Below are positions 1 to 49,066 of a stretch of DNA of 64,000 nucleotides, piece by piece. The notes under the pieces are model-generated. The model was not told the origin of the DNA. It was given only the letters and a program-made list of their open reading frames with translations, and did not search any database. The stretch is from Escherichia phage vB_EcoM_HZ_ZJUN4. The position numbers were made by a program, and so were the translations under genes. The DNA lies in the sequence record PP216085. The stretch is one strand, 5' to 3'. Position 1 is the stretch's first letter. Every line of letters starts with the position of its first letter.

Positions 1-2484
1 TGCTTTAACTTCTTGACCGGCAATTAATCTTCCCAAAAGATTATGAATAGTTACGGTCCATTGTAATTTACCATTAGAATAGCTTCTTTCTATATAAGTA
101 ACATTACATCTTCCTGTAGCTGTATAAATCGTTTGTCCTACTAAGTCTTCGGTCAAAGAATCAGATTGAACGATTATATCATATTCAGTACCAGCCCCAG
201 ATTCAATTTCAATTTCAACTTCTTCATTATAAAGAACTTTAAAAAGAAATTTGTATGATGCTTCAATTCCTTTAGTAGAATAAAAATCATAGCTACGTGA
301 TTCAAAAAATCTTGCAACAGCATCACGTTTATCAGCATTTAAATAAATGTTTCTTTTATATATCTCTGACCACAAATATTCCCACGCATGCTCTTCTCGC
401 GGATATTGGTTACGAATTAAATTTCGTAAATTATTATACTGAGTTCCATATCCATCAGAAAGATACTGAATATATGCTTCGCAGAATGCCTCAAAATTAG
501 AATCCTGTAGCAAATAAGAATCAGGCATCATTGTGCCAATCAATGGTCTTAAATCAGGATCAGCTAATCCATGCTCTTCTTCCGGGGACCAAGGAGTTTC
601 ACGCTCTTGGTTTTGTAAAAATGCTTTTAAAAATATTCCAGTTGGCTTCCAAATTATTTCAACCGTGTCTCTCACTCGATAGTTAAAATCATAGTAAGAA
701 ATTATTTCACCAGAAGATTTATAAAAAAGCATCCCAGACGCATATTTTTTAAATCCCGTGAATTTAACATTTGGCATTACTATCGTGCAATCACCATCAT
801 CCCAATATTCATGAACTAATCTATCTGGCGATGTTTCCGGAATATTTTCTATAACTTTAGTGTATTTTAAATCAGCATAAACTACTACAGCTCTATCAGA
901 GTTGTTTATCCAACAGCGTGTGTTAGATTTTTTAGACCAGTTAAAGAATGGTTCTGCATAGTATTTCATCGGCTGAGGCGTAAAAGTTTCCCAATCAGAT
1001 TTTTCATCTGCTATAAATGCCATCATATGATAATGCTTATCAGCTAGCCATTCACGAGGAAATTCATATTTAACAGCACCGATTAACTGATATTTCGCTG
1101 CAGTTTCAGGGTCATTAACAATGTTATCACTTAAAAATTTAAAATTACTCGAAGATAGAGAAACTAATTTACCGTCAGTTGACATATTCGCATATCCAGG
1201 TTGAATACGTCTTCTTTCTTCTTCAGTGTTGCCAAAAACTCTTTTCCATGTTTTCGTAGCATGATTTAAAACATATATTCCTTTATCGGCAGAATCAATT
1301 ATTTTTGATGTTCTAGGATTAGCATTTAATGTTTCAACTTCACCAATAATAAGAGCAAAAACTTTATCACCGACAGAATCCATTTTATAACATACTGCTT
1401 TAGGATTTCCAGTTATAGTCATCGTATCAGGTTCAAATAGCCTTTCCGAATATGTTGGAGATAATGGGTCAGAATCTATAGGTGCATTACTCGTTTTTAT
1501 GTATCTAACTTTGTCTCTGGCGACAACGTAAATGTAATCATTAGTGCAAGTAATAGCTTCTGCAATGCGGTATACATTAGCTGGCAAAGTCGCGTAAGTG
1601 GCAAAAATTTCTACATCAAATCCTAGATGTAATTGGTCGCCAAGTTTAGCGAATGTTATATCCTGCGAACTAAATCTGACATCATCAGCTGACCATCTAA
1701 CATCAGTAGATTTGCGGCCATAGAAAATCTTGTCGTATCCTAGAACGTATGTTGTGTTTGCAGATTGGTAATATACAGTCTTAGATAAAGGATATCCTAC
1801 ACGGTCATTGAAGAGCTTTACAGCTTTCCAGGTTTGTCCTTTATCATTAGATACTTTAACTACAGGTTGATAACGCTCAAAAAGATATAGAATCCCTTCT
1901 GATTCCATCAAATAAACTCGGTTAATATCCTTACATACTTGCTGAATAGAACCTTGTATTTCATGATACTCATTTTCACCAATAATAAAATTACTTATTG
2001 ATGAAACATCAACATATGATGGGCTGAATTGAAACGATTCATTCATCAATGCAGCCATTATAGTGTCATTGTTAAAATTGACATAGTCAGAATTATTAAG
2101 AGTAAATTTTTCCTGAATGAATTTATTAGCTAATTGCATTTCAATCATGTTTTGAAATGTATAAGCGTTTGTAGCAAAAGTTTCAAACTCTTCAGTATAA
2201 ATCCAATCAGACTGCTCAAAATCCTGCGCAGCTGTAGCTACTCTAATAATGTACGATGTCAATGGGTCAGCATTATCAAAAAAGAAGCTGTTATTTGCAG
2301 TATATCCTAAGTTAACCCATCTGTATTGATTACTCGGGAGATTTTCCCCCGAGTCTGTTTTTGTCTCAGCGATTTCTACAAAATAGTAGAAATTAGCACC
2401 AACGTCATCCCAGCGTACTTGCACCTGATTTGCGGATAACTTGGAAATTCTGAGACTAGTGACTGAAGGTGCTTTTACTGTCAT
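1..2484 (-). CDS. 7: baseplate wedge protein gp7, N-terminal ~828 codons (gene continues past window start)
   Basis: Reverse complement of 2400-2484 translates MTVKAPSVTSLRISKLSANQVQVRWDDV, the gp7 N-terminus as I recall it; ATGA start/stop overlap with gene 6; gene order 53-5-6-7. Confidence 0.85.
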   Translation of the reverse strand, partial: MTVKAPSVTSLRISKLSANQVQVRWDDVGANFYYFVEIAETKTDSGENLPSNQYRWVNLGYTANNSFFFDNADPLTSYIIRVATAAQDFEQSDWIYTEEFETFATNAYTFQNMIEMQLANKFIQEKFTLNNSDYVNFNNDTIMAALMNESFQFSPSYVDVSSISNFIIGENEYHEIQGSIQQVCKDINRVYLMESEGILYLFERYQPVVKVSNDKGQTWKAVKLFNDRVGYPLSKTVYYQSANTTYVLGYDKIFYGRKSTDVRWSADDVRFSSQDITFAKLGDQLHLGFDVEIFATYATLPANVYRIAEAITCTNDYIYVVARDKVRYIKTSNAPIDSDPLSPTYSERLFEPDTMTITGNPKAVCYKMDSVGDKVFALIIGEVETLNANPRTSKIIDSADKGIYVLNHATKTWKRVFGNTEEERRRIQPGYANMSTDGKLVSLSSSNFKFLSDNIVNDPETAAKYQLIGAVKYEFPREWLADKHYHMMAFIADEKSDWETFTPQPMKYYAEPFFNWSKKSNTRCWINNSDRAVVVYADLKYTKVIENIPETSPDRLVHEYWDDGDCTIVMPNVKFTGFKKYASGMLFYKSSGEIISYYDFNYRVRDTVEIIWKPTGIFLKAFLQNQERETPWSPEEEHGLADPDLRPLIGTMMPDSYLLQDSNFEAFCEAYIQYLSDGYGTQYNNLRNLIRNQYPREEHAWEYLWSEIYKRNIYLNADKRDAVARFFESRSYDFYSTKGIEASYKFLFKVLYNEEVEIEIESGAGTEYDIIVQSDSLTEDLVGQTIYTATGRCNVTYIERSYSNGKLQWTVTIHNLLGRLIAGQEVKA

Positions 2485-4463
2485 TGTGATATAGGCTCCA
2501 AATCGATAGTTAAGTATTGTGGACGTAAATCATTTTCAAATACAATCAGTGAACCATCGCGTGTGAAAATAACATCGTCTATTGGATCAGAATATAGCTC
2601 AATAGTCTGAACCTCAAATTTATCGGATGTTAAATTAATTTTAGCGATATTCCAATAAATCATGTCAGCTGGATAATTTATTTCACCGATAACGTAGTAT
2701 TTGTCGCGTCCATCGGAACTTGCTAATTTATTAAAATCATTGCCTGTATATGGCTGAATGTTTTCATTTTCTGTAACATCACCCGAAGCAAATGGACCAA
2801 TAATAACTTTACCAATTCCTTTAGAATCTCGGTCTGTTGATACTATACGAACGTCATATAATACATCTTCTTCTAAGCCAGTATCAGGATTTACAACCTT
2901 TCGTCCGGAATTAAATGAAAACGTATTAGATTCCATAGAACGATCTTTTATTTGATTATTGTATTTAATACCCGCTTCAGGCGTTTTATAGAAGTTTTGT
3001 ACTTCACGTACCATTTGAATTGTCGCGGATGAGCCAATAATAGAATGATCTGCATCATCTACATATGTCAACATCTTAGATTTAGCGAAAGATGAGTTAA
3101 AAATTTCTACATCTTCGGTATAATAACGATCAATTTTATCAATTATTTGACCTTCTAGCCACTGTTCTGATTCTTGCAGCTTATTTAAAGCATATGTGAC
3201 TTTTAAATTAGTCTTAACAAAAAGATAATTAGGAGAAATAATTGATGGTGTAATAGGAGCTAAATTATAATCTTTGAGATAATTTTTAATATCTTCACGT
3301 TGTACAGTAGTTAAATATAGTCCTGATTTAGGTTTAGCAGCAATAAATGCATAACCAGGCTTAGTAGAATCAGTGAAAGTCTGAACTGCTTGAATAATAG
3401 AACCGAATCTTTCTGAGACGAATGTATCATAATCAGTCGCAGTTACGCATCGTTGCTGGGTTTCACGTTTAATAGTACCCAATTCGCGAATACGTTCAAT
3501 ATCTTCTGGGTCACCGCCGCCATCTGCCCCAACAAAATCTGGGTCATCGTTTGGGTTTTCGTTAATATTGATGACAGTTATATTTGTTAATGTATCTGCG
3601 TATGAAAATCCGACTGCACCGTTCGCATCTGCACCGTTAGTACTGATGTACTCAATAACAATCGTAGAGTTCTGAGTAGGTTTAAGACCTCCAATATAAT
3701 TAGCAGTCAATGCTCCTTCTGCCGCATTAACGGAAATCTCACCTTCACCAAAATAAAATTCAGTATTTCCATCAATAGTTTCACGCATGTAGTAAATTGT
3801 TGATGTAGAACCAGCATGAACCATTGACTTTCTTGTCCAGTTAATCCATTCTGCTCCATCAACGTATAGTTTAACTTGGTTTCTATCTATATTTTTGTCA
3901 TAAATGATAATAGGTGTTAATTTATCATAAATGATTTCAGTTCTTACTATACGTCCCTGGGCTAATTTTAAACGCGGAAAATATTGGTTATTTTTATCGC
4001 GAATAGCAATAACATCTTCAGTAGATACAAAGTTATAAGGATTAACGGAAGTATCTTTTGCATATGCTAAAAAGCGAGTACCGCGAGGAATAGTAATGTA
4101 ATTTCTATTCAATGCGTCTGTGCAAGTTAGCATAATTTCAGTTTGAGCAGCTGATTTTGAAGTAGGTAAATATCCATTATCTTGTGCCGCTTGAACTACT
4201 GAACTACGTAAGTTAGCAGTACGCATAAAGCTTTCATATACAGCAGCATTACCAAACTGCTGAATGTACAATGTATTATAAGCCAAAAGGTCACACAGAA
4301 CGTTTAATCTTGAGCCTTCAAAATCATAATCCAAAAATTCATTTTGGCCATTAAGCCATTCAATGAGGTTTTGTTTTATTTCAGCAAATGTACCCCCGAC
4401 GAATATCTCGGGAATAGCATTTGCTGTTCTTGTTAATTGATAATTTACAGGGGTCTTTGCCAT
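2481..4463 (-). CDS. 6: baseplate wedge protein gp6 (660 aa)
   Basis: 660-aa ORF starting MAKTPVNYQLTRTAN; length and position between 5.4 and 7 match T4 gp6. Confidence 0.93.
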   Translation of the reverse strand: MAKTPVNYQLTRTANAIPEIFVGGTFAEIKQNLIEWLNGQNEFLDYDFEGSRLNVLCDLLAYNTLYIQQFGNAAVYESFMRTANLRSSVVQAAQDNGYLPTSKSAAQTEIMLTCTDALNRNYITIPRGTRFLAYAKDTSVNPYNFVSTEDVIAIRDKNNQYFPRLKLAQGRIVRTEIIYDKLTPIIIYDKNIDRNQVKLYVDGAEWINWTRKSMVHAGSTSTIYYMRETIDGNTEFYFGEGEISVNAAEGALTANYIGGLKPTQNSTIVIEYISTNGADANGAVGFSYADTLTNITVININENPNDDPDFVGADGGGDPEDIERIRELGTIKRETQQRCVTATDYDTFVSERFGSIIQAVQTFTDSTKPGYAFIAAKPKSGLYLTTVQREDIKNYLKDYNLAPITPSIISPNYLFVKTNLKVTYALNKLQESEQWLEGQIIDKIDRYYTEDVEIFNSSFAKSKMLTYVDDADHSIIGSSATIQMVREVQNFYKTPEAGIKYNNQIKDRSMESNTFSFNSGRKVVNPDTGLEEDVLYDVRIVSTDRDSKGIGKVIIGPFASGDVTENENIQPYTGNDFNKLASSDGRDKYYVIGEINYPADMIYWNIAKINLTSDKFEVQTIELYSDPIDDVIFTRDGSLIVFENDLRPQYLTIDLEPISQ

Positions 4464-38300: not shown

Positions 38301-38774
38301 ATGTTATTGACTGGCAAATTGTACAAAGAAGAAAAACAAAAATTTTATGATGCACAAAACGGTAAATGCTTAATTTGCCAACGAGAATTAAATCCTGATG
38401 TTCAAGCTAATCACCTTGACCATGACCATGAATTAAATGGACCGAAAGCTGGAAAGGTACGTGGGTTGCTTTGTAATCTCTGTAATGCGGCAGAAGGTCA
38501 AATGAAACATAAATTTAATCGTTCTGGCTTAAAAGGACAAGGCGTTGATTATCTTGAATGGTTAGAAAATTTACTTACTTATTTAAAATCCGATTACACC
38601 CAAAATAATATTCACCCTAACTTTGTTGGAGATAAATCAAAGGAATTTTCTCGTTTAGGAAAAGAGGAAATGATGGCTGAGATGCTTCAAAGAGGATTTG
38701 AATATAATGAATCTGACACTAAAACACAATTAATAGCTTCATTTAAGAAGCAGCTTAGAAAGAGTTTAAAATGA
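38301..38774 (+). CDS. 49: endonuclease VII, Holliday-junction resolvase (157 aa)
   Basis: MLLTGKLYKEEKQKFYDAQNGKCLICQREL...HLDHDH; Zn-binding Cys and His-box; matches T4 gp49. Confidence 0.93.
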   Translation: MLLTGKLYKEEKQKFYDAQNGKCLICQRELNPDVQANHLDHDHELNGPKAGKVRGLLCNLCNAAEGQMKHKFNRSGLKGQGVDYLEWLENLLTYLKSDYTQNNIHPNFVGDKSKEFSRLGKEEMMAEMLQRGFEYNESDTKTQLIASFKKQLRKSLK

Positions 38775-40588
38775 CAATTGAAAAAGAAATTGAAGGATTA
38801 ATTCATAAAACTAATAAAGACCTTTTGAACGAGAATGCTAATAAAGATTCTCGTGTTTTTCCAACTCAACGGGACCTTATGGCTGGTATTGTGTCTAAAC
38901 ACATTGCCAAAAATATGGTCCCGTCTTTTATTATGAAAGCGCATGAAAGCGGAATTATTCATTTCCATGATATTGATTATTCCCCTGCTCTTCCATTTAC
39001 TAATTGCTGTTTAGTAGATTTAAAAGGAATGCTTGAGAACGGGTTTAAGCTTGGTAATGCACAGATTGAAACCCCTAAATCAATCGGCGTTGCTACTGCA
39101 ATTATGGCACAAATTACTGCACAGGTTGCTTCCCATCAATACGGTGGAACGACTTTTGCGAATGTAGATAAAGTCCTTTCTCCTTATGTTAAACGCACCT
39201 ATGCAAAACATATTGAAGACGCGGAAAAATGGCAAATCACTGATGCGTTGAATTATGCCCAATCTAAAACAGAAAAAGATGTATACGATGCGTTCCAAGC
39301 TTATGAATATGAAGTAAATACTCTCTTTAGTTCAAACGGACAAACGCCTTTTGTAACAATTACATTTGGTACGGGAACTGACTGGACTGAACGAATGATT
39401 CAGAAAGCAATTCTGAAAAATCGTATTAAAGGTCTTGGTCGTGACGGGATAACTCCTATTTTCCCTAAACTTGTTATGTTCGTTGAAGAAGGTGTTAATC
39501 TTTATAAAGACGATCCGAACTATGATATTAAGCAGCTTGCTCTAGAGTGTGCAAGCAAAAGAATGTATCCTGATATTATTTCAGCTAAGAACAATAAAGC
39601 TATCACCGGTTCATCTATTCCTGTTTCTCCAATGGGTTGCCGTAGTTTCTTGAGCGTATGGAAAGATTCGACTGGTAATGAAATTCTTGATGGACGTAAT
39701 AATCTTGGTGTTGTAACACTGAATCTTCCTCGCATTGCACTAGATTCTTATATTGGAACACAGTTCAATGAACAGAAATTTGCCGAATTGTTCAATGAGA
39801 GAATGGATTTATGTTTTGAAGCATTGATGTGTAGAATTAGTTCCTTAAAAGGAGTTAAAGCTACTGTTGCTCCTATTCTTTACCAAGAAGGTGCATTCGG
39901 GGTTCGTCTTAAACCTGATGACGATATAATTGAGTTATTTAAAAACGGTAGAAGTTCAGTGTCCCTAGGATACATTGGTATTCACGAATTGAATATTCTT
40001 GTCGGTCGTGATATTGGACAAGAAATTTTAACTAAAATGAATACTCATCTTAAGCAGTGGACTGAAAGAACCGGTTTTGCTTTTAGCTTGTATTCTACTC
40101 CTGCTGAAAACCTGTGCTATCGCTTCTGTAAACTTGATACTGAGAAATATGGAAGTGTAAAAGATGTTACTGATAAAGGATGGTACACTAATAGTTTCCA
40201 TGTTTCAGTAGAAGAAAATATCACTCCGTTTGAAAAGATTTCTCGTGAAGCACCATATCATTTCATTGCGACAGGTGGTCACATTTCTTATGTTGAACTT
40301 CCTGATATGAAAAATAACTTAAAAGGTCTTGAGGCTGTATGGGATTATGCTGCGCAACATTTAGATTATTTTGGCGTTAACATGCCAGTAGATAAATGTT
40401 TTACGTGTGGAAGTACCCATGAAATGACTCCTACTGAAAACGGATTTGTTTGTTCTATTTGTGGAGAAACTGATCCTAAAAAGATGAACACAATAAGAAG
40501 AACTTGTGGTTATTTGGGAAATCCGAATGAACGCGGATTTAATCTTGGCAAAAATAAAGAAATCATGCATAGGGTTAAACACCAATGA
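38771..40588 (+). CDS. nrdD: anaerobic ribonucleotide reductase NrdD (605 aa), intronless
   Basis: 605-aa continuous ORF with C-terminal glycyl-radical motif RRTCGYLG and Cys-rich Zn site CFTCGS...CSICG. Confidence 0.93.
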   Translation: MTIEKEIEGLIHKTNKDLLNENANKDSRVFPTQRDLMAGIVSKHIAKNMVPSFIMKAHESGIIHFHDIDYSPALPFTNCCLVDLKGMLENGFKLGNAQIETPKSIGVATAIMAQITAQVASHQYGGTTFANVDKVLSPYVKRTYAKHIEDAEKWQITDALNYAQSKTEKDVYDAFQAYEYEVNTLFSSNGQTPFVTITFGTGTDWTERMIQKAILKNRIKGLGRDGITPIFPKLVMFVEEGVNLYKDDPNYDIKQLALECASKRMYPDIISAKNNKAITGSSIPVSPMGCRSFLSVWKDSTGNEILDGRNNLGVVTLNLPRIALDSYIGTQFNEQKFAELFNERMDLCFEALMCRISSLKGVKATVAPILYQEGAFGVRLKPDDDIIELFKNGRSSVSLGYIGIHELNILVGRDIGQEILTKMNTHLKQWTERTGFAFSLYSTPAENLCYRFCKLDTEKYGSVKDVTDKGWYTNSFHVSVEENITPFEKISREAPYHFIATGGHISYVELPDMKNNLKGLEAVWDYAAQHLDYFGVNMPVDKCFTCGSTHEMTPTENGFVCSICGETDPKKMNTIRRTCGYLGNPNERGFNLGKNKEIMHRVKHQ

Positions 40589-41424
40589 ATTACGATAGAT
40601 TTTATCCCTGTGATTTTGTGAATGATAAATTATCTTTAATATTTGAAGAAAATAATGATTTACTATTGTCATATGTTGATTTGATAACAAAAAATTATAA
40701 TAATCCTAAAATAAAAGGAAAAACGGAAGCACATCACGTGCTTCCCAAATCTATATTTCCCGAATATAAAACAGATAAATGGAATATTGTTAATTTGTCA
40801 TATTATGACCACGCGTTAGCTCATTACTATTTAGCTAAAACAAGTAATAGTAAAATGTGTTATGCCTTTCATAGAATGATAAACTCGAATACCGATAGAT
40901 TTAATACAGATGAATTGGATGAAATTCTTAAATTGTATTCCAGTGAAAAGGAATTATTTCACCGCTCTATGTCAAAATTATCGAAAAATATATGGAAGGA
41001 TGACGATTTTAGAAAAAGACATAGAGAACTAACTAAGTTAGCAATGCAAAAACCTGAAGTTAGAAATAAAACTTTATTAAATTTGTCAAATGCAATGAAA
41101 ACTGACGAAGTTAGAAATAAAATTTCCAGGCTAACTAAGTTAGCAATGCAAAAACCTGAAGTAAAAGAAAAACATAGAAATTCATTGAGGTTGGCGTATG
41201 CAAATCCTGAGGTTATGAAAAGAAAACATCAACGTCTTCGAGAAAAATATACTCTTAATTTATTTGGCGCATATAAAGATGGTGTTCTTTTAAAAACATT
41301 TAATTATATACCAGACGCAGCAAAATATTTTAATATTTCTAGCAAAGGAAATATTTTAAAATGTTTAAATGGCGAACGTAAAAGTGTTGAAGGCTATAAT
41401 TGGAAATATATAAATGAATTATGA
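40585..41424 (+). mobile_element. HNH-family homing endonuclease gene (279 aa) inserted upstream of nrdG
   Basis: HNH-like motif EAHHVLPKS ... NIVNLSYYDHALAH; first 13 codons (MNYDRFYPCDFVN) duplicate the nrdG N-terminus; repeated KLAMQKPEV modules. Confidence 0.7.
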
Positions 41425-41884
41425 CAGAATATACCCGTGCTGCTTTGTGAATGGCCCTGGATGCAGGACCGTTCTTTTCGTTACAGGTTGTTTGCATAAA
41501 TGTGAAGGGTGTTATAATAAATCAACATGGAATGCTAGAAATGGCGTTCCATTCACTGGTGAAACACTGGAACAATTAATTAAATGTTTGAATAATGATT
41601 ATATAGAAGGATTAACTATAACTGGAGGAGACCCTCTTTATCCTGATAACCGAGATGTTGTTCATTGCATTGTTCAAACAGTAAAAAATCTTTATCCAAA
41701 TAAAAGCATTTGGTTGTGGACAGGATATAAGTTTGAAGATATTAAACAACTAGAAATGCTTAAATATGTTGATGTTATTATTGATGGGAAGTATGAGAAA
41801 AATCTTCCGACCAAAAAGCTGTGGCGAGGTTCAGATAATCAGCGACTTTGGTCAAATACCGATGGGGTGTGGAAACATGATTAA
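41414..41884 (+). CDS. nrdG: anaerobic RNR activase NrdG, radical SAM (156 aa)
   Basis: MNYDRIYPCCFVNGPGCRTVLFVTGCLHKCEGC (CxxxCxxC); 156 aa. Confidence 0.92.
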   Translation: MNYDRIYPCCFVNGPGCRTVLFVTGCLHKCEGCYNKSTWNARNGVPFTGETLEQLIKCLNNDYIEGLTITGGDPLYPDNRDVVHCIVQTVKNLYPNKSIWLWTGYKFEDIKQLEMLKYVDVIIDGKYEKNLPTKKLWRGSDNQRLWSNTDGVWKHD

Positions 41885-41998
41885 ACTGAATTATATTATT
41901 GATACTATAAATGATATGATTTTTCATTTTGGTCCAGAATTTTATTCGCAGTATAGTTTAGTACTTATCAATGCTTGGTTAATCAATTAAGGGTAAAT

Positions 41999-42214
41999 AT
42001 GTATAAATTTCGTAAAGGTTTAGCTGATTTTCTTACAACTGTAACGTTCTTTTTGTTTATGGCAGTTGGTGCTATTTTTCTTATTCCTTTTATTGCTATA
42101 TTTTTCGTGATTAGTTTGATTTCTCCAGAAAAAGGACTGTCTTCTAGCGAGTTCAATGAACGCCTGGATAAAATTACTAATAAGCTGAATGCTGTTCTTG
42201 ATAAAAAGGATTAA
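41999..42214 (+). CDS. small membrane protein (71 aa)
   Basis: Internal ATG after GGGTAAAT; one long hydrophobic helix. Confidence 0.5.
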   Translation: MYKFRKGLADFLTTVTFFLFMAVGAIFLIPFIAIFFVISLISPEKGLSSSEFNERLDKITNKLNAVLDKKD

Positions 42215-42216
42215 TT

Positions 42217-42528
42217 ATGATTAGTTTTGAGCGGTATGTGGTAGAGAGTTGGAAAGGTTTTGATATGTTCGGTAATGACTATTATTTTTACGAATGTAAT
42301 CTAAATCCTAGTTTTTGGGCTGGACGTGAACGAGATCTCGAAGAAATTAATGCTCGTGCCGAATTGTTAGGTGAACTACCTACGGTTTATTTTACCTTTG
42401 ATGCATCTGGATTTGTTATCCAGGTTTATTTTCCTGAAGAAAACTCTGGTGAGGATTCTGTTAACCCGCCATACTGGGCTTATCAAGGAATTATTTCTCG
42501 TGGAACAAAACTCGAACTTAAAGAATAA
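42217..42528 (+). CDS. hypothetical protein (103 aa)
   Basis: ORF immediately after the upstream stop. Confidence 0.55.
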   Translation: MISFERYVVESWKGFDMFGNDYYFYECNLNPSFWAGRERDLEEINARAELLGELPTVYFTFDASGFVIQVYFPEENSGEDSVNPPYWAYQGIISRGTKLELKE

Positions 42529-42823
42529 GATTGAAGTCTATGGAATTCCAGATGAAGTAGGTCGTTGTCCTGGATGTCAATCAGTTACAAAACTTCTAAA
42601 GGAGCTCAATGCTCCTTTTACTTTCTATAAAGTTCTTACAAATAATGGTAAGATCGAGTATGATCGTCCATTGATTGTATCTCTTGCTAAACGCGCTGGA
42701 TTCACATCTCTTAACATTCGTTATCCAGTCATTTTCATCAATGATTCTAGACAAAAGAACATTAAACACTTCAAAGAAACTCTCATTTCACTTGGATATG
42801 ATAGAGATATCATAGAAGACTAA
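42500..42823 (+). CDS. nrdH: NrdH-like glutaredoxin (about 107 aa), probable GTG start
   Basis: KIEVYGIPDEVGRCPGCQSV carries a CPGC redox motif; no in-frame ATG near the domain start, GTG at about 42500 is preceded by AAGGA. Confidence 0.6.
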   Translation: MEQNSNLKNKIEVYGIPDEVGRCPGCQSVTKLLKELNAPFTFYKVLTNNGKIEYDRPLIVSLAKRAGFTSLNIRYPVIFINDSRQKNIKHFKETLISLGYDRDIIED

Positions 42824-42825
42824 GA

Positions 42826-42849
42826 CGGGCCCTCTGGGCCTTTCTTTCT
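42826..42849 (+). terminator. intrinsic terminator (GGGCCC-TCT-GGGCC + T-rich)
   Basis: GC hairpin followed by TTTCTTTCT. Confidence 0.6.
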
Positions 42850-42920
42850 CGCATTCTGTATATTACCATTCTAAGCTATCGTTCCCTTCTTATCATTCCC
42901 TAAAATAATTTCACAAAGTT

Positions 42921-42950
42921 GTTTACAAGAAGTTCAAACTGTGGTATTAT
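42921..42950 (+). promoter_or_regulatory. early promoter
   Basis: ACAAAGTTGTTTAC ... GTGGTATTAT. Confidence 0.6.
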
Positions 42951-42980
42951 TAACATATGAATTGCCTTTGAGGATTTGAT

Positions 42981-43163
42981 ATGGTTGTGGTTGATAAAGA
43001 AATTAAAAAGGGACAATATTATTTTATTAATGGTAATGTTGTTCGTGTTACTTATGTAAACGGTTTTGAAGTTTATTATCTTATACTCAAGTTACATAAA
43101 CAGATGATTTGTGATCGTGCTGTATTTAGTTCAGTTGCTAAGGAAATTAAACTCCATGGGTAA
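42981..43163 (+). CDS. hypothetical protein (60 aa)
   Basis: ORF after promoter with GAGGATTTGAT ribosome-binding site. Confidence 0.5.
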   Translation: MVVVDKEIKKGQYYFINGNVVRVTYVNGFEVYYLILKLHKQMICDRAVFSSVAKEIKLHG

Positions 43164-43588
43164 AACGTATCGTCGTAAAGATTTAAAAGTACGTGATTAT
43201 GACTATTTCGGAAAGCGTAAAGCTCCTGATGGTGTAAGTCATAAAGATATGGTTGAAAACATTTTTCACTCAGATAAATGACGTAGAATGAAAGGCATTG
43301 ATTCAGAAGTTAAAGATGAGTTAAATCGTCAATTACGTGGTGAAGTAAGAAAGTTGAAAAAATCAGTTTACATTGACGATGATTTTGATTACAATACTTC
43401 TCAACGAGTTGCTAAGCGTAAATCAAACGAGTGCTATCGTTACAGCTGAGGAAAATATGAATATCAAACGCATGCTTTTTAAACAGGGATTATATACTTT
43501 AAATGTTGCTCCAAAAGGCGATACGACCAAGTGGTCAGTAAATGACTGGATTAAATTTATTGATGAAAACGGTAACTGGAAAATTTAA

Positions 43589-43789
43589 ATGAATCCTGAA
43601 TCTAAATTATCGCAACGAATTGCTGAAGCTCGTCGTCAGTTCTTTGAAAATATGATAGCCCAAGGTATTGATGACGAAGTTTTTCTGAACTGGTTTTGGA
43701 ATCACAAATATTCAAAATGCGCAGGAGCAATATTAATATCAGCCGCAATGATGTACGAAGGCTGGAAGGGTGCCAAACAGTTTAGCTAA
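43589..43789 (+). CDS. hypothetical protein (66 aa)
   Basis: Followed by hairpin AGGGC-TTCG-GCCCT plus TTTTT at about 43789-43807. Confidence 0.5.
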   Translation: MNPESKLSQRIAEARRQFFENMIAQGIDDEVFLNWFWNHKYSKCAGAILISAAMMYEGWKGAKQFS

Positions 43790-43841
43790 GGGCTTCGGCC
43801 CTTTTTGGATAATAAAATTTTAATGCAATTGAGGATAATGT

Positions 43842-44168
43842 ATGACTATTCAAATTAAAAACGCCATCAATTCTTACGCATATGATAAAGTAGTTTCTTT
43901 GCTAGAAAAAGGCGATATTGTAACTCCTCAAATTTTGGATAAATGGGAAAAAGAGCTTCATCAGACGATGAAACAGAATGATCAGAAAATTGGACGAAAT
44001 ACTATCCGTGAATTGTTGGTTCAATATATCTTGTCAGAATTTGATGTTAAAGCTTTTGGCGTAGAATCTAAAGCTTATCAAAAGCATGAAATTTCTGATA
44101 AAACTATTCGTCGTATGAAAAATCAACGCAAGAAAAAATTTGCTGACCTGAAAATTGCTAAGGTATGA
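43842..44168 (+). CDS. hypothetical protein (108 aa)
   Basis: ORF with ribosome-binding site GAGGATAATGT. Confidence 0.55.
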   Translation: MTIQIKNAINSYAYDKVVSLLEKGDIVTPQILDKWEKELHQTMKQNDQKIGRNTIRELLVQYILSEFDVKAFGVESKAYQKHEISDKTIRRMKNQRKKKFADLKIAKV

Positions 44169-44386
44169 ATATGAACGAAGCTCTTATTAACGATTTGCGT
44201 CTTGCCGGATATGAAGTAAATACAAACGGCATTGGTTTAACTCAAATTGAAGGAAATGGATTCATCCTTGAGTATGAATTTAGCCAATGGTGGTTATACG
44301 CTAATTACGGCGAATTGATTGAATACGTTGACCAGTTTGATTCACTAGATGCAGCTCTCGAAGCGGCTAAGTTGATGAATGTATGA
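44165..44386 (+). CDS. hypothetical protein (73 aa)
   Basis: ORF overlapping the upstream stop. Confidence 0.5.
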   Translation: MNMNEALINDLRLAGYEVNTNGIGLTQIEGNGFILEYEFSQWWLYANYGELIEYVDQFDSLDAALEAAKLMNV

Positions 44387-44652
44387 AATTTATTAATATT
44401 TCTATTACTATTGAAAATTATGGAATTTTCTATGTTGACCAATACATGAAAATTTCATTTTTCCCAAATAAGACTGGTGTTGGATATTGGGAAAGCCATG
44501 TTTCTGAATTAAATGAAAGTGAATATGCTAGCACACATGAAAAGTTTTTAGACTTTTTATATCATGCTGATTTAACTAGTCATTACATAGATATTCATGA
44601 ATTTAAAAAGATGATGGAGAAAGTGTTCCAAGCATACTGTTTACTTAGATAA
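44383..44652 (+). CDS. hypothetical protein (89 aa)
   Basis: ORF overlapping the upstream stop. Confidence 0.5.
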   Translation: MKFINISITIENYGIFYVDQYMKISFFPNKTGVGYWESHVSELNESEYASTHEKFLDFLYHADLTSHYIDIHEFKKMMEKVFQAYCLLR

Positions 44653-44664
44653 CTGATATCCTCT

Positions 44665-44701
44665 ATGCTTTAAGATAGATCTTCAAATATTATGATATAA
44701 T
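44665..44701 (+). promoter_or_regulatory. possible MotA-dependent middle promoter upstream of gene 55
   Basis: MotA-box-like ATGCTTTA followed by TATTAT / GATATAAT; spacing not ideal. Confidence 0.4.
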
Positions 44702-44730
44702 AGATCTATGAATTGAGCTAAGAGGTGAAA

Positions 44731-45288
44731 ATGTCAGAAACTAAGCCTAAATATAATTACGTAAACAATAAAGAGCTTTTACAGGCTATTATTGATTGGA
44801 AAACAGAATTAGCAAATAATAAAGACCCAAATAAAGTAGTTCGTCAGAATGATACTATCGGATTAGCCATTATGCTTATCGCAGAAGGCTTATCTAAACG
44901 TTTCAACTTTTCAGGATACACCCAATCTTGGAAACAAGAAATGATTGCAGATGGTATAGAAGCTTCTATTAAGGGGCTTCATAATTTTGATGAAACGAAA
45001 TATAAAAACCCACATGCATATATAACTCAAGCTTGTTTTAATGCATTCGTCCAACGTATTAAAAAAGAACGTAAGGAAGTTGCAAAGAAATATAGTTACT
45101 TCGTTCACAATGTCTATGACAGTCGTGACGACGATATGGTTGCGTTAGTAGATGAAACTTTTATTCAAGACATCTACGATAAAATGACGCATTACGAAGA
45201 ATCAACCTATAGAACACCAGGGGCTGAAAAGAAAAGTGTTGTAGACGATTCTCCTAGTTTGGATTTTTTATATGAGGCTAACGATTAA
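44731..45288 (+). CDS. 55: late sigma factor gp55 (185 aa)
   Basis: ATG after AGAGGTG; 185 aa; position upstream of a-gt as in T4. Confidence 0.9.
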
Positions 45289-45490
45289 CCTCTCCGGATT
45301 CTTGGAAGAAATACCTGAAGTTGAAGCTATTCCCTATTTACTTAAAATGTATCTCAGGGAAGTTTTAGCTCTTGACATTGATATTGATCCAGAAAATCCG
45401 TATGATACCGCTTTTAAATCTAATGGTGTAGAATTAAACTATCGGTATCATTTAACAGATGATGATTTTTATTTTATATTAGAGAAATAA
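45272..45490 (+). CDS. hypothetical protein (72 aa)
   Basis: ORF overlapping the gene 55 end. Confidence 0.5.
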
Positions 45491-45491
45491 T

Positions 45492-45809
45492 ATGACTGAT
45501 AAACCCGAAATTAATGATGAAGTGGAAAAGCTTATTTCTTCTATTGAAGAAAAGAACCGTCTTGAAGCAGAAAGAAAAGCAAATAAGTTATTGTCTAAAA
45601 ATAAACGCGAACTGAACCGTCTTTATAAACACGCTCAGATTGCAGCTGAAAACAATAATTTTGCTCAATACGAATATGCTATCAAGAAAAGTCGGGATAT
45701 TCTAAAACAGCCATATAATGATGAACTCATTAGTATTCTTTGGAAGACTACTAGATCGCAGATTGAGGATATGATTGATGCTTACACACGTAAAATTCAA
45801 GCGTCTTAA
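45492..45809 (+). CDS. hypothetical protein (105 aa)
   Basis: Helical Lys/Glu-rich ORF. Confidence 0.55.
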   Translation: MTDKPEINDEVEKLISSIEEKNRLEAERKANKLLSKNKRELNRLYKHAQIAAENNNFAQYEYAIKKSRDILKQPYNDELISILWKTTRSQIEDMIDAYTRKIQAS

Positions 45810-45981
45810 AATTAATGCAGGATTTACTGAATCTTTGAACGGTCATCTTTGTGTGAAAATTTCTGAAAAAGAATACCATGATAGTTCAATTAAAGAAGTT
45901 AATCCTCCTATTGTAAGAGCAGACCCTAATATGAAAGTGTGGGTTGATTCTTATCAAGTCAAAAAATGGTGGCAACTGTGA
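45775..45981 (+). CDS. hypothetical protein (68 aa)
   Basis: ORF overlapping upstream gene end. Confidence 0.45.
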   Translation: MMLTHVKFKRLKINAGFTESLNGHLCVKISEKEYHDSSIKEVNPPIVRADPNMKVWVDSYQVKKWWQL

Positions 45982-46224
45982 AAGATGAACACCCAGACTT
46001 CTGAAATAGATTATAACAAAATTCGTTCCTCTAAAGTAGAAATGATGAGACGCTTTAAAGAGGCTCATGATAAAGCTAAAGCAGAAGGAACTATAACATA
46101 TAAACGCATAAAATTTAGAAGCTCTAATGAGCCTCTGTATGGTGTATTATGTGGATAGGAGCTTCGGCTCCTATATTGCTTTATAAATTTTTGGTAAAAT
46201 AAACCAAAACAATGAGGATATTAA

Positions 46225-47427
46225 ATGAAAGTATGTATTTTTATGGCTCGAGGTCTTGAAGGTTGCGGTGTAACTAAATTTTCTCTTGAGCAGCGTGATT
46301 GGTTTATTAAAAATGGTCATGAAGTAACTTTGGTTTATGCTAAAGATAAATCATTTACTCGTAATTGCGCGCATGATTATAAATCATTTTCAATTCCGGT
46401 TTTATTGGCAAAAGAATACGATAAAACACTTAAGTTGGTAAATGATTGTGATATTCTAATTATCAATTCAGTTCCTGCTACTTCAGTTGAAGAAGACACG
46501 ATTAATAACTATAAAAAAATTATTGATAACATTAAACCTTCGGTTCGTGTTGTAGTTTATCAGCATGACCATTCTTCTCTTTCTTTACGCCGAAATTTGG
46601 GATTAGAAGAAACTGTTCGTCGAGCTGATGTTATTTTTAGCCATTCTGATAATGGCGATTTTAATAAAGTTTTAATGAAAGAATGGTATCCAGAAACTGT
46701 TTCACTGTTTGATGATATTGAAGAAGCACCGACTGTATATAACTTTCAGCCTCCTATGGATATTGCGAAGGTTCGATCAACTTACTGGAAAGATGTTTCT
46801 GAAATTAACATGAATATCAACCGTTGGATTGGTCGTACTACTACATGGAAAGGCTTTTATCAGATGTTTGATTTTCACGAAAAACATCTTAAACCTGCAG
46901 GACTAAGTACTATTATGGAAGGTCTGGAACGTTCTCCAGCGTTCATTCCTATTAAAGAAAAAGGAATTCCATACGAGTATTATCGTCTTCATCAAGTAGA
47001 CCAAATTAAAATTGCTCCTAATTTGCCAACGCAAATTCTCGACCGTTATGTAAATAGCGAAATGCTTGAACGTATGAGTAAATCCGGATTTGGTTATCAG
47101 CTGAGTAAATTAGATAAAAAATATCTACAACGTTCTTTAGAATACACTCATCTCGAGCTTGGTGCATGCGGAACAATTCCAGTATTTTGGAAATCTACTG
47201 GTGAAAATTTAAAATTCCGTGTTGATAATACTCCGTTAATTTCTCATGATAGCGGTATCGTTTGGTTTGATGAAAATGACATGAAATCAACATTTGAGCG
47301 TATTAAAGAACTGTCATCTGACCGAGCTCTTTATGACCGTGAACGTGAAAAAGCTTATGAATTTTTGTATCAGCATCAAGATTCAAGCTTCTGCTTTAAA
47401 GAGCAGTTTGACATTATTACAAAATAA
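46225..47427 (+). CDS. a-gt: DNA alpha-glucosyltransferase (400 aa)
   Basis: 400-aa ORF MKVCIFMARGLEGCGVTKFSLEQRDWF...; size and position between 55 and 47 match T4 a-gt. Confidence 0.88.
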   Translation: MKVCIFMARGLEGCGVTKFSLEQRDWFIKNGHEVTLVYAKDKSFTRNCAHDYKSFSIPVLLAKEYDKTLKLVNDCDILIINSVPATSVEEDTINNYKKIIDNIKPSVRVVVYQHDHSSLSLRRNLGLEETVRRADVIFSHSDNGDFNKVLMKEWYPETVSLFDDIEEAPTVYNFQPPMDIAKVRSTYWKDVSEINMNINRWIGRTTTWKGFYQMFDFHEKHLKPAGLSTIMEGLERSPAFIPIKEKGIPYEYYRLHQVDQIKIAPNLPTQILDRYVNSEMLERMSKSGFGYQLSKLDKKYLQRSLEYTHLELGACGTIPVFWKSTGENLKFRVDNTPLISHDSGIVWFDENDMKSTFERIKELSSDRALYDREREKAYEFLYQHQDSSFCFKEQFDIITK

Positions 47428-47603
47428 AGGGCTTCGGCCCTTTAGCTTTATACGGAGTTTGATATAATGATATTTCTTGGATATGTGATACTTTTTCTTG
47501 CATTTTATCTATTTGCTAGAGCATGTTGGATTGGGTTCTTTAGCACTCCAGATGGATTTATTTCAATAATTTTATTTTGCATTTCAATGACGGTTCTTGA
47601 TAT

Positions 47604-48623
47604 ATGAAAATTTTAAATTTAGGTGATTGGCATTTAGGCGTTAAAGCTGATGATGAGTGGATTCAATCAATCCAGTTGGATGGAATTAAGCAAGCGATAG
47701 AATATTCTAAGAAAAACGGAATTACTACATGGATTCAATACGGCGATATTTTTGATGTGCGAAAAGCAATCACACATAAAACTATGGAGTTCGCCCGTGA
47801 AATAGTTCAAATGCTTGATGATGCTGGTATTACCCTGCATACTGTTGTAGGAAACCATGATATGCACTTTAAAAATACTTTAACTCCAAATGCTTCTACT
47901 GAGCTTTTGGCTAAATATCCTAATGTTAAAGTATATGATAAGCCTACTACAGTAGATTTTGACGGATGTTTGATTGATTTAATTCCTTGGATGTGTGAAG
48001 AAAATACCGGTGAAATTCTTGAACACATCAAAACTTCATCTGCTTCTTTTTGTGTTGGTCACTGGGAACTGAATGGATTTTATTTTTATAAAGGAATGAA
48101 ATCTCACGGTCTTGAACCTGATTTCCTTAAGACTTATAAAGAGGTGTGGTCTGGTCACTTCCATACTATCTCTGAGGCTGCTAACGTCAAATATATTGGG
48201 ACACCATGGACACTAACTGCAGGTGACGAGAATGACCCTCGCGGGTTCTGGATGTTTGATACAGAAACAGAACGAATGGAATTTATTCCAAACAACACTA
48301 CCTGGCATCGTCGAATTCAATATCCATTTAAGGGAAAAATTGACTACAAAGATTTTACAAATCTATCAGTACGTGTTATAGTAACTGAAGTAGACAAAAA
48401 TCTAACGAAGTTCGAATCTGAACTAGAAAAAGTTGTGCATTCATTACGAGTTGTGTCAAAGATTGATAACTCTGTCGAGTCAGATGATAGCGAAGAAGTT
48501 GAAGTTCAATCTCTTCAGACGTTGATGGAAGAATACATTAATGCAATTCCAGACATCACTGATTCTGATCGCGAAGCACTTATTCAATATGCAAATCAGT
48601 TATATGTAGAGGCAACACAATGA
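47604..48623 (+). CDS. 47: recombination nuclease subunit gp47 (Mre11/SbcD-like, 339 aa)
   Basis: Phosphoesterase motifs LGDWHLG, GDIFD, GNHD, GHWE, GHFH; 339 aa. Confidence 0.93.
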   Translation: MKILNLGDWHLGVKADDEWIQSIQLDGIKQAIEYSKKNGITTWIQYGDIFDVRKAITHKTMEFAREIVQMLDDAGITLHTVVGNHDMHFKNTLTPNASTELLAKYPNVKVYDKPTTVDFDGCLIDLIPWMCEENTGEILEHIKTSSASFCVGHWELNGFYFYKGMKSHGLEPDFLKTYKEVWSGHFHTISEAANVKYIGTPWTLTAGDENDPRGFWMFDTETERMEFIPNNTTWHRRIQYPFKGKIDYKDFTNLSVRVIVTEVDKNLTKFESELEKVVHSLRVVSKIDNSVESDDSEEVEVQSLQTLMEEYINAIPDITDSDREALIQYANQLYVEATQ

Positions 48624-48883
48624 CTTTTGATGAATTTAAAAATGTTATGATGTGTCAGCATTTTGAATGCGAAGTAAAAGATGATATTGGGCATAAAGAA
48701 ATTATTGAATATTGGTTTGAACCGCTAGAGGTTGAAGATAATTGTATTAAAAAGGTCACGGTCTGCACTGACTGGGCGGTATCTTTTAACTTCAACATTT
48801 TAGATAATGACACACCTAAATCATTACAAGATATGGCTGTATCTTGTATTAAGGATGCATACTGTGAAGTTTTCGACATTTGA
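48620..48883 (+). CDS. hypothetical protein (87 aa), 46.x position
   Basis: ORF overlapping the gene 47 stop; Cys-rich. Confidence 0.55.
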   Translation: MTFDEFKNVMMCQHFECEVKDDIGHKEIIEYWFEPLEVEDNCIKKVTVCTDWAVSFNFNILDNDTPKSLQDMAVSCIKDAYCEVFDI

Positions 48884-49066
48884 CATTAACGATGAATTCA
48901 TAGCAAATATTGATTACACCGAAGAAGATTCTAGATATGTTGGAATAATTTATATCACATCAAAAGCAGCACAAGGTGTTGTTTGCATGGCTGAATTTGA
49001 TGAATACTTTTTAGATTATGATGATATGATAGAATGGTCTAAAAGATACATTAAAAGGAATCTTTT

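Follow-up and report, generated by a model that had tools for sequence, protein, structure and literature searches.

A Mob-type HNH homing endonuclease gene probably inserted within nrdG of a T-even phage, with a captured start and a replacement 5′ end

Introduction

In fungal mitochondria, mobile open reading frames (ORFs), e.g., that of Allomyces atp6, place an endonuclease inside a gene and bring a foreign copy of the gene end that they displace. The present work concerns the nrdD–nrdG junction in a stretch of 64,000 nucleotides (nt), herein called the window, of Escherichia phage vB_EcoM_HZ_ZJUN4 (accession number PP216085), a T-even type phage (Tequatrovirus), where an ORF of 279 amino acids (aa) with an HNH motif was located between the anaerobic ribonucleotide reductase genes nrdD and nrdG. 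Edgell et al. 2010 (PMC2988022) describe T4 mobE, which lacks a promoter and overlaps the stop codon of the preceding gene; T4 mobC, a free-standing HNH gene entered with activity ND and target unknown; and segH, which is found in place of mobC in other T-even phages, the last observation being credited to Sandegren et al. 2005. In-gene insertions have also been reported: mobE of Aeromonas phage Aeh1 splits nrdA, leaving 'genes in pieces', and the T4 mobA/gene 60-39 cassette is an in-gene HNH insertion (PMC3653736; bioRxiv 10.1101/2022.08.31.505936). Movement of such elements across genera was still called unproven in 2012 (PMC3468402).

The sequence comparison described below indicated that the 279-aa ORF is probably a free-standing Mob-type HNH gene inserted in nrdG between codons 13 and 14, with a captured start and a replacement 5′ end. 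The predicted mobile unit of ~829 bp consisted of the endonuclease gene from codon 14 on plus foreign nrdG codons 1 to 13 (encoding MNYDRIYPCCFVN), and the putative target-site motif was the DNA encoding the conserved FVN/GPGCR (the slash separates codons 13 and 14), a coding sequence nearly invariant at the DNA level across genera.

Results

Duplicated nrdG 5′ ends flanking the endonuclease ORF

The endonuclease ORF (nt 40585 to 41424; this and all other window features were on the plus strand) was flanked on both sides by nrdG-start sequence: (i) an upstream copy of nrdG codons 1 to 13 (nt 40585 to 40623; encoding MNYDRFYPCDFVN), which made up codons 1 to 13 of the endonuclease ORF itself, and (ii) a downstream copy (nt 41414 to 41452; encoding MNYDRIYPCCFVN), which was the present start of an intact nrdG (nt 41414 to 41884; 156 aa; radical S-adenosylmethionine activase of the anaerobic ribonucleotide reductase; Pfam Fer4_12, E = 3e-48). 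A previous sequence-only reading of the window had reported the start MNYDR(F/I)YPC(D/C)FVN to be shared by the 279-aa ORF and nrdG with diverged nucleotide sequences, and both points held: 11 of the 13 residues and 29 of the 39 nt were identical, and a repeat search delimited a 41-nt direct repeat (nt 40584 to 40624 and 41413 to 41453) with 76% identity and a spacing of 829 nt. Differences between the two copies were mostly third-position ones, plus F6I and D10C. When the upstream 39-mer was slid along both strands of the 64-kb window, the best nonself match was 29/39 at nt 41414, the runner-up was 25/39, and the mean was 11.0 (standard deviation 2.8); the resemblance of the two 39-nt starts is far beyond chance.

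Insertion point and identity of the two copies

The sequence comparison was applied to carriers of the endonuclease gene together with insert-free relatives from two genera. Insert-free REP4 had the structure ...cacca ATGAATTACGATAGATTTTATCCCTGCGATTTTGTGAAT GGCCCTGGATGCAGG, i.e., the upstream copy of the window joined to the sequence that followed the downstream copy of the window, and its junction read ...caccaATGAATTACGATAGATTTTATCCCTGCGATTTTGTGAAT/GGCCCT; the window upstream copy and the REP4 nrdG start were a single synonymous base apart. Insert-free Klebsiella phage KP179 (Jiaodavirus) had the nrdG start ATGAATTTCGACAGAATCTACCCTTCTGACTTTGTGAAT (encoding MNFDRIYPSDFVN), and the endonuclease starts of the Klebsiella-phage carriers Mexia, UTI-K1, and Roth77 were nucleotide-identical to these 39 nt of KP179, while their nrdG genes started with MNYDRIYPCCFVN. 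Eight Tequatrovirus carriers had the resident MNYDRFYPCDFVN allele as the endonuclease start, in at least four haplotypes mirroring those of insert-free relatives. The downstream copy encoded MNYDRIYPCCFVN in all 11 carriers read from the two genera. Since the upstream copy switched with the genus and the downstream copy stayed constant, the former was the recipient's own and the latter moves together with the element. The cross-genus comparison of the copies put the insertion point after nrdG codon 13 and before codon 14; the exact junction was ambiguous inside the shared TTTGTGAATG. Relative to the insert-free genomes (REP4, KP179, and IMG/VR loci), the window thus contained an 829-bp insertion (nt 40624 to 41452) composed of the endonuclease body and a 39-nt replacement nrdG 5′ end.

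Alignment with endonuclease-less relatives, which the sequence-only reading had suggested as one check, accordingly located the junctions and modified the claim itself. That reading had an endonuclease gene inserted at the nrdG start and carrying a copy of the nrdG 5′ end: the insertion stood, but its point lies inside nrdG; a second copy does come with the element, but the copy brought in lies downstream and is not the one fused to the endonuclease.

The replacement allele (hereafter the CC allele) differed from insert-free alleles at five fixed bases: the third base of codon 6 (Y>A), the third base of codon 8 (Y>R), and codon 10 (GAY>TGC). All 28 insert-free IMG/VR nrdG loci read, which served solely as insert-free controls, had GAY (Asp) at codon 10 and never TGC. 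Among Klebsiella phages, CC-allele records adjoined the endonuclease gene in 11 of 11 cases, and 111 records matched the insert-free resident-allele junction (nrdG codons 1 to 20) at ≥99%. Two of the three fixed changes were synonymous, which points to selection on DNA, most simply for cleavage resistance.

The divergence of carriers from insert-free relatives was a spike limited to the first 39 to 78 nt of nrdG, as expected of co-conversion: identity rose from 77% in the first 39 nt to 90–100% beyond in the window and from 72% to 100% in Mexia. The final codons of this downstream copy (GTT AAT GGT versus GTG AAT GGC) co-varied with the resident background in several carriers, so that the right-hand exchange point often fell within the 39 nt.

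Klebsiella phages of the genus Jiaodavirus had an extra ORF of ~72 to 77 aa between nrdD and nrdG (nt 2298 to 2531 in Mexia and 714 to 932 in KP179), which was unrelated to nrdG, was called MazG-like in one record, and had no counterpart in T-even coliphages. In UTI-K1, the endonuclease gene (nt 604 to 1440) bore the name 'ribonucleotide reductase class III activating protein', for which its captured nrdG codons may be the reason. A split nrdG in Klebsiella phages was considered and rejected: the second 'activase' of UTI-K1 was this misnamed endonuclease, and the 77-aa ORF upstream was the one unrelated to nrdG.

Presence and absence of the insert among phages

A query containing the endonuclease gene was fully covered in 21 phage records (96–98% nucleotide identity), while most other relatives matched it in two pieces with no insert, and the insertion polymorphism anticipated among relatives was thereby found. 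The protein was recovered at ≥80% coverage in 31 phage records, 10 of them Klebsiella phages (80–90% identity); the carriers comprised 21 Tequatrovirus and 10 Jiaodavirus records, and the junction was empty in most records, hundreds of relatives having no insert there. An insert-free junction query matched 834 records, of which 60 were sampled at even ranking steps: 41 were colinear in a single piece and hence without insert, and inserts of ~820 bp (SegH type) and ~620 bp (MobC type) were seen in four and three records, respectively. The gene therefore displayed the presence/absence polymorphism of a homing gene: close relatives either had it or lacked it at a single exact position. When IMG/VR was scanned with the endonuclease, the matches were nrdG starts and a single distant relative, and none was a close copy.

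Sequence evidence for cross-genus transfer of mobC at the same locus

The T4 MobC protein started with MNYDRIY/SNLVN..., in which the residues before the slash corresponded to nrdG codons 1 to 7, and its last residues, ...WKYKDEL, were encoded up to a ATGAATTATGA overlap with nrdG like that of the window ORF. The stretches compared were nt 1447 to 2539 of the T4 region 41000 to 49000 (accession number AF158101) and nt 904 to 1996 of the Shark_ER15 locus. T4 mobC was 99% nucleotide-identical to its counterpart in Klebsiella phage Shark_ER15. The latter encoded the Jiaodavirus start MNFDRIY, and only codons 1 to 3 differed in a resident-specific manner (MNY versus MNF). T4 nrdG was 95–100% identical to the Jiaodavirus type for ~310 nt and 62–82% identical thereafter. 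Because the extra Jiaodavirus ORF leaves no homology to the left of the ATG, the left crossover must have fallen within the captured codons, after the third and before the fourth. The mobC transfer is direct evidence, at the sequence level, that the duplicated 5′ end can act as a left homology arm, and T4 nrdG looks like a chimera resulting from cross-genus homing with co-conversion.

The endonuclease protein

The 279-aa protein matched PHROG 655 (homing endonuclease; E = 1.6e-36), as T4 MobC did (E = 4e-43), and this common family supported the earlier identification as a free-standing homing endonuclease; tblastn with the window protein also reached T4 MobD at 32%. The HNH motif noticed earlier was present: the HNH core (residues 47 to 84, EAHHVLPKS...WNIVNLS...DHALAH; nt 40723 to 40836) had H50, H51, N67, H76, and H80 invariant in an eight-sequence family alignment, and its HNH residues aligned with ELHH...DNLV...H..AH of T4 MobC. 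The homologue search gave just eight relatives, leading to a shallow alignment for AlphaFold, and the resulting model (predicted local distance difference test score 76.5) was composed of (i) a beta-beta-alpha unit at residues 47 to 84 (strands 47 to 51 and 68 to 72 and helix 73 to 84), (ii) five helices of ~14 residues each, and (iii) a small C-terminal beta/helix domain. The best PDB fold match of this shallow-alignment model was the HNH homing endonuclease I-HmuI. The five helices corresponded to a helical array of about five 17-residue repeats (...PEV(R/K)xK...; nt 41002 to 41250), a putative DNA-binding linker, and the last domain was assigned as a NUMOD1/I-HmuI-like helix-turn-helix domain (nt 41251 to 41409) from the fold match and two Pfam matches both under the gathering score (PF22083, E = 2.4e-4; PF07453, E = 5.6e-3).

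The repeats had no NUMOD3 match at E ≤ 10 and resembled only KNPEVRxKxSEAxK of the homologue P0007 and the predicted 14-residue helices, with a period of ~17. The doubled KLAMQKPEV of the sequence-only reading was recovered as an exact 32-nt repeat (nt 41029 to 41060 and 41131 to 41162) encoding LTKLAMQKPEV twice, and these repeats sat within a 51-nt periodic array. A natural variant, P0003, lacked exactly the 34 aa between the exact repeats (repeat-number polymorphism), and the 32-nt repeats differed between the E. coli-phage and Klebsiella-phage versions but were near-identical within each (concerted evolution). Compared to the Klebsiella-phage counterpart (87% aa and ~80% nt identity), the ratio of nonsynonymous to synonymous substitution rates (dN/dS) was 0.075 with dS of 0.94, and thus the endonuclease was under strong purifying selection. 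A search of NCBIfam gave nothing relevant for the protein. Nuclease activity and the cut site are predictions, as is the N-terminal peptide MNYDRFYPCDFVNDK of the captured start.

Two paralogues were observed at other loci: (i) a 284-aa protein with 35% identity, encoded downstream of the alpha-glucosyltransferase gene in T6 (nt 1974 to 2828 of the T6 stretch) and many coliphages, and (ii) a protein encoded between 49.3 and 49.1 in VR7 (nt 2417 to 3097 of the VR7 stretch), having the C-terminal domain in common. The N-terminus of the T6-type paralogue, DEFLIKELVEKLAL, was faintly like DRFYPCDFVNDKLSL, and this likeness might have given microhomology for the original fusion. The distant homologues P0004 to P0008, also at other loci, had unrelated N-termini that were not nrdG-like.

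Gene arrangement and expression signals

The gp49 endonuclease VII gene (nt 38301 to 38774) was upstream of nrdD (nt 38771 to 40588), which encoded the 605-aa large subunit of the anaerobic ribonucleotide reductase (Pfam NRDD, E = 3e-171). The nrdD stop codon TGA overlapped the endonuclease ATG at nt 40585 (ATGA). At the other end, the endonuclease TGA sat within nrdG codons 3 and 4 in the overlap ATGAATTATGA (nt 41414 to 41424), which was used in two reading frames: the last three endonuclease codons plus TGA were nrdG codons 1 to 4 out of frame, and the nrdG ATG was 8 nt ahead of the endonuclease stop.

No Rfam intron family was detected in nt 38500 to 42300 at E ≤ 1, and the gene did not belong to the intron- or intein-borne class, since the ORFs were separate and overlapping and each had its own stop codon. 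The window nrdD was intron-less, while phage PST (nt 1 to 1887 of the PST stretch), with the same HNH gene, and T4 had an nrdD group I intron with I-TevII; this difference in intron status indicates that the neighbouring mobile elements assort independently. A scan for sigma-70 promoters and terminators gave no more than the shuffled-sequence level, and a search for T4 late and middle promoter motifs gave only TATAAATG over the nrdG ATG and one GCTT-type site within nrdG; an embedded promoter is not claimed for the endonuclease cassette.

Proposed mechanism

Under the proposed mechanism, the enzyme would nick or cut insert-free nrdG near codons 6 to 14, close to the DNA encoding FVN/GPGCR. The break would be repaired from a carrier, with codons 1 to 13 of the recipient nrdG pairing with the first 13 codons of the endonuclease gene as the left arm, nrdG from codon 14 onward pairing with the carrier nrdG as the right arm, and everything between being copied; homing would then be independent of the sequence upstream of nrdG. 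The 13 resident codons would stay upstream, in frame with the endonuclease, and would provide the promoterless gene with an ATG and with ATGA coupling to nrdD, and the replacement copy would restore a complete nrdG. Re-initiation from the ATG 8 nt before the endonuclease stop would probably couple nrdG translation to that of the endonuclease; nrdG expression would be chained to the endonuclease, which may favour its retention. The fixed differences of the replacement allele would probably make the carrier resistant to cleavage.

Points against the insertion mechanism and alternative explanations

Several observations weigh against the capture and replacement mechanism. No Pfam HNH family matched the window protein at E ≤ 10, while T4 MobC passed PF01844 (27.6 bits; cut-off 21.4), and a PDB sequence search gave no relevant match; with no profile match, the HNH assignment was based on PHROG 655, the motif alignment, and the fold. 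The start codon (ATG at codon 1 or GTG at codon 12) was deduced from the ORF structure and from conservation beginning at codon 14. Base-by-base reading covered 11 of the ~31 carriers (eight Tequatrovirus and three Jiaodavirus). Furthermore, the CC allele was also found directly downstream of segH in T6, F2, PP01, and the RB3 group, and insert-free phage U5 (accession number AY262145, nt 2526 to 2586 of the U5 stretch) had a standard nrdD end together with the CC allele, with 61/61 nt shared with the window in the region of the nrdG start. The CC allele was thus not exclusive to the HNH gene; it may have arisen elsewhere and may protect against another nuclease, with the anatomy of the insertion unchanged.

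These CC-allele records favour an alternative in which the allele pre-existed, e.g., as a SegH-linked or SegH-resistant allele, and the HNH gene entered genomes having it or displaced SegH in them. The segH-linked allele of T6 and F2 was identical to that of the window over the first 33 nt and differed at one base over 39 nt, and the CC allele occurred in 75 records, compared to ~21 Tequatrovirus carriers of the HNH gene. In Jiaodavirus, however, it was found only beside a window-type HNH gene or a MobC-type gene, and there its synonymous divergence (7/39 nt, with the protein unchanged) was in step with that of the endonuclease, which argues that the allele travelled with HNH cassettes as well. 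We consider a pre-existing allele unlikely, and it would bear on where the allele arose while leaving the anatomy as it is. The CC allele is common to three nuclease cassettes and can exist without one; U5 could have arisen through recombination loss between the direct repeats or through co-conversion that ended before reaching the endonuclease, or it could represent the ancestral state or source. The segH stretches (nt 380 to 1210 in F2 and 1501 to 2331 in T6) had a changed nrdD C-terminus (...GTPSVVPWNLGKMKEMVKRVKHA versus ...GNPNERGFNLGKNKEIMHRVKHQ), and this diverged nrdD end together with the CC nrdG indicates that the flanks of segH were co-converted on both sides. The SegH gene at nrdD/nrdG was labelled 'segD' in several RB-phage records (RB3/RB5/RB7).

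A second alternative is an immobile or domesticated ancestral resident, with the polymorphism produced by repeated deletions and not by homing. The direct repeats could mediate precise deletion, with U5 as a possible product, and the listing of T4 mobC as 'active: ND, target unknown' (PMC2988022) would agree with immobility. Such a resident is nevertheless very unlikely: the carriers were few and dispersed across two genera, their flanks were of the resident type, and their upstream copies fell into several haplotypes; the T4 and Klebsiella-phage mobC copies were 99% identical while their nrdG genes differed by 20–40%; and the catalytic residues were conserved, with the low dN/dS given above.

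In a third alternative, the cassette would consist of an nrdG 5′ copy plus the endonuclease and would have entered immediately before the nrdG ATG, and the downstream copy would be the resident one. Within a single genome, this arrangement is formally equivalent to insertion between codons 13 and 14, and insert-free U5 with its CC allele could be such a recipient. Across genomes, it is opposed by the upstream copy, which followed the host genus and matched its insert-free allele exactly while the downstream copy was constant, by the adjacency of the Jiaodavirus CC records to the endonuclease (11/11), and by the extra 77-aa Jiaodavirus ORF, with which cross-genus transfer would find no homology to the left of the ATG; we regard it as highly improbable. 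Finally, chance similarity or convergence of a family-native N-terminus without any 5′-end capture, for which one could cite the vague likeness of DEFLIKELVEKLAL in the T6-type paralogue to DRFYPCDFVNDKLSL and the tblastn alignments to this paralogue beginning at residue 4, is refuted by the genus-specific DNA identity of the upstream 39 nt, (near-)identical to the resident nrdG alleles and switching with the genus, in addition to the unrelated N-termini of P0004 to P0008 and the extreme outlier of 29/39 nt in the window.

Discussion

Insertion between nrdG codons 13 and 14 with a captured start and a replacement 5′ end is thus the preferred explanation for this locus. The gene class and the mobC/segH slot were known, and the window gene is a new subfamily member there, while its insertion mode appears to be undescribed: no description of nrdG 5′ capture and replacement was found in the searchable literature, to which Sandegren et al. 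2005 did not belong, so that a prior description is possible there. More tentatively, and with somewhat less than even confidence, 5′ capture plus replacement may be a general strategy for intron- and intein-free life in coding sequence, with a portable start and left arm that works across genera (T4 and Klebsiella Jiaodavirus, in either direction) and with one resistant nrdG allele used by three unrelated competing nucleases. If so, any phage whose nrdG start is conserved could be a homing recipient, regardless of the sequence before it. The anatomy of the locus itself predicts nrdG codons ~6 to 14 as the target of T4 mobC and of its 279-aa relative, the resistant allele differing at the five bases named above. 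It represents a third route, beside self-splicing introns or inteins and tolerated gene splitting, to harmless occupation of a conserved coding site by a selfish nuclease gene, and the sequences of the mobC transfer are evidence that such elements have recently moved between genera. On the practical side, the captured codons may already have caused an endonuclease to be named as the NrdG activase by one annotation pipeline or more.

Compared to T4 MobC, the window endonuclease had the same slot, orientation, PHROG 655 membership, ATGA overlap with nrdD, ATGAATTATGA overlap with nrdG, and start made of nrdG codons, but the two proteins differed in several respects: (i) identity was 38% over just 60 residues of the HNH core (BLASTP); (ii) MobC was 210 aa long, compared to 279 aa, and lacked the N-terminal segment of ~25 residues and the helical repeat array; and (iii) MobC had seven captured codons, compared to 13, and only MobC was matched by Pfam HNH. 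Given the low and partial similarity and the different lengths and domains, the window gene is not an orthologue of mobC, and the two have the locus alone in common. Some GenBank records name the window's gene 'mobC'.

SegH of T6 and other phages likewise shared the intergenic slot and the MNYDRIYPCCFVN nrdG allele immediately after it, but SegH belonged to the unrelated GIY-YIG family, started with MHRYYIIYKITN... without captured nrdG codons, and was accompanied by a diverged nrdD 3′ end (86–88% versus 95–99%). T4 MobE and I-HmuI, which are characterised HNH homing nickases, combine an HNH core with extended DNA-binding modules and a helix-turn-helix at the C-terminus, an arrangement also predicted for the window protein; unlike the window gene, mobE lies between nrdA and nrdB and its target, the adjacent gene, is not duplicated, and I-HmuI is intron-encoded.

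Aeh1 mobE and T4 mobA shared with the window gene the placement of a free-standing HNH gene inside a nucleotide-metabolism coding sequence with no intron or intein, but in both cases the host gene was left as two polypeptides, whereas in the window nrdG was kept whole by the duplicated 5′ end and the leftover fragment was absorbed into the endonuclease ORF. In the Allomyces-type mobile ORFs, replacement concerns the 3′ end, and the endonuclease forms a fusion with the gene upstream of it; in the window, by contrast, the 5′ end of a phage gene was concerned, and the resident fragment had become the endonuclease's own N-terminus.

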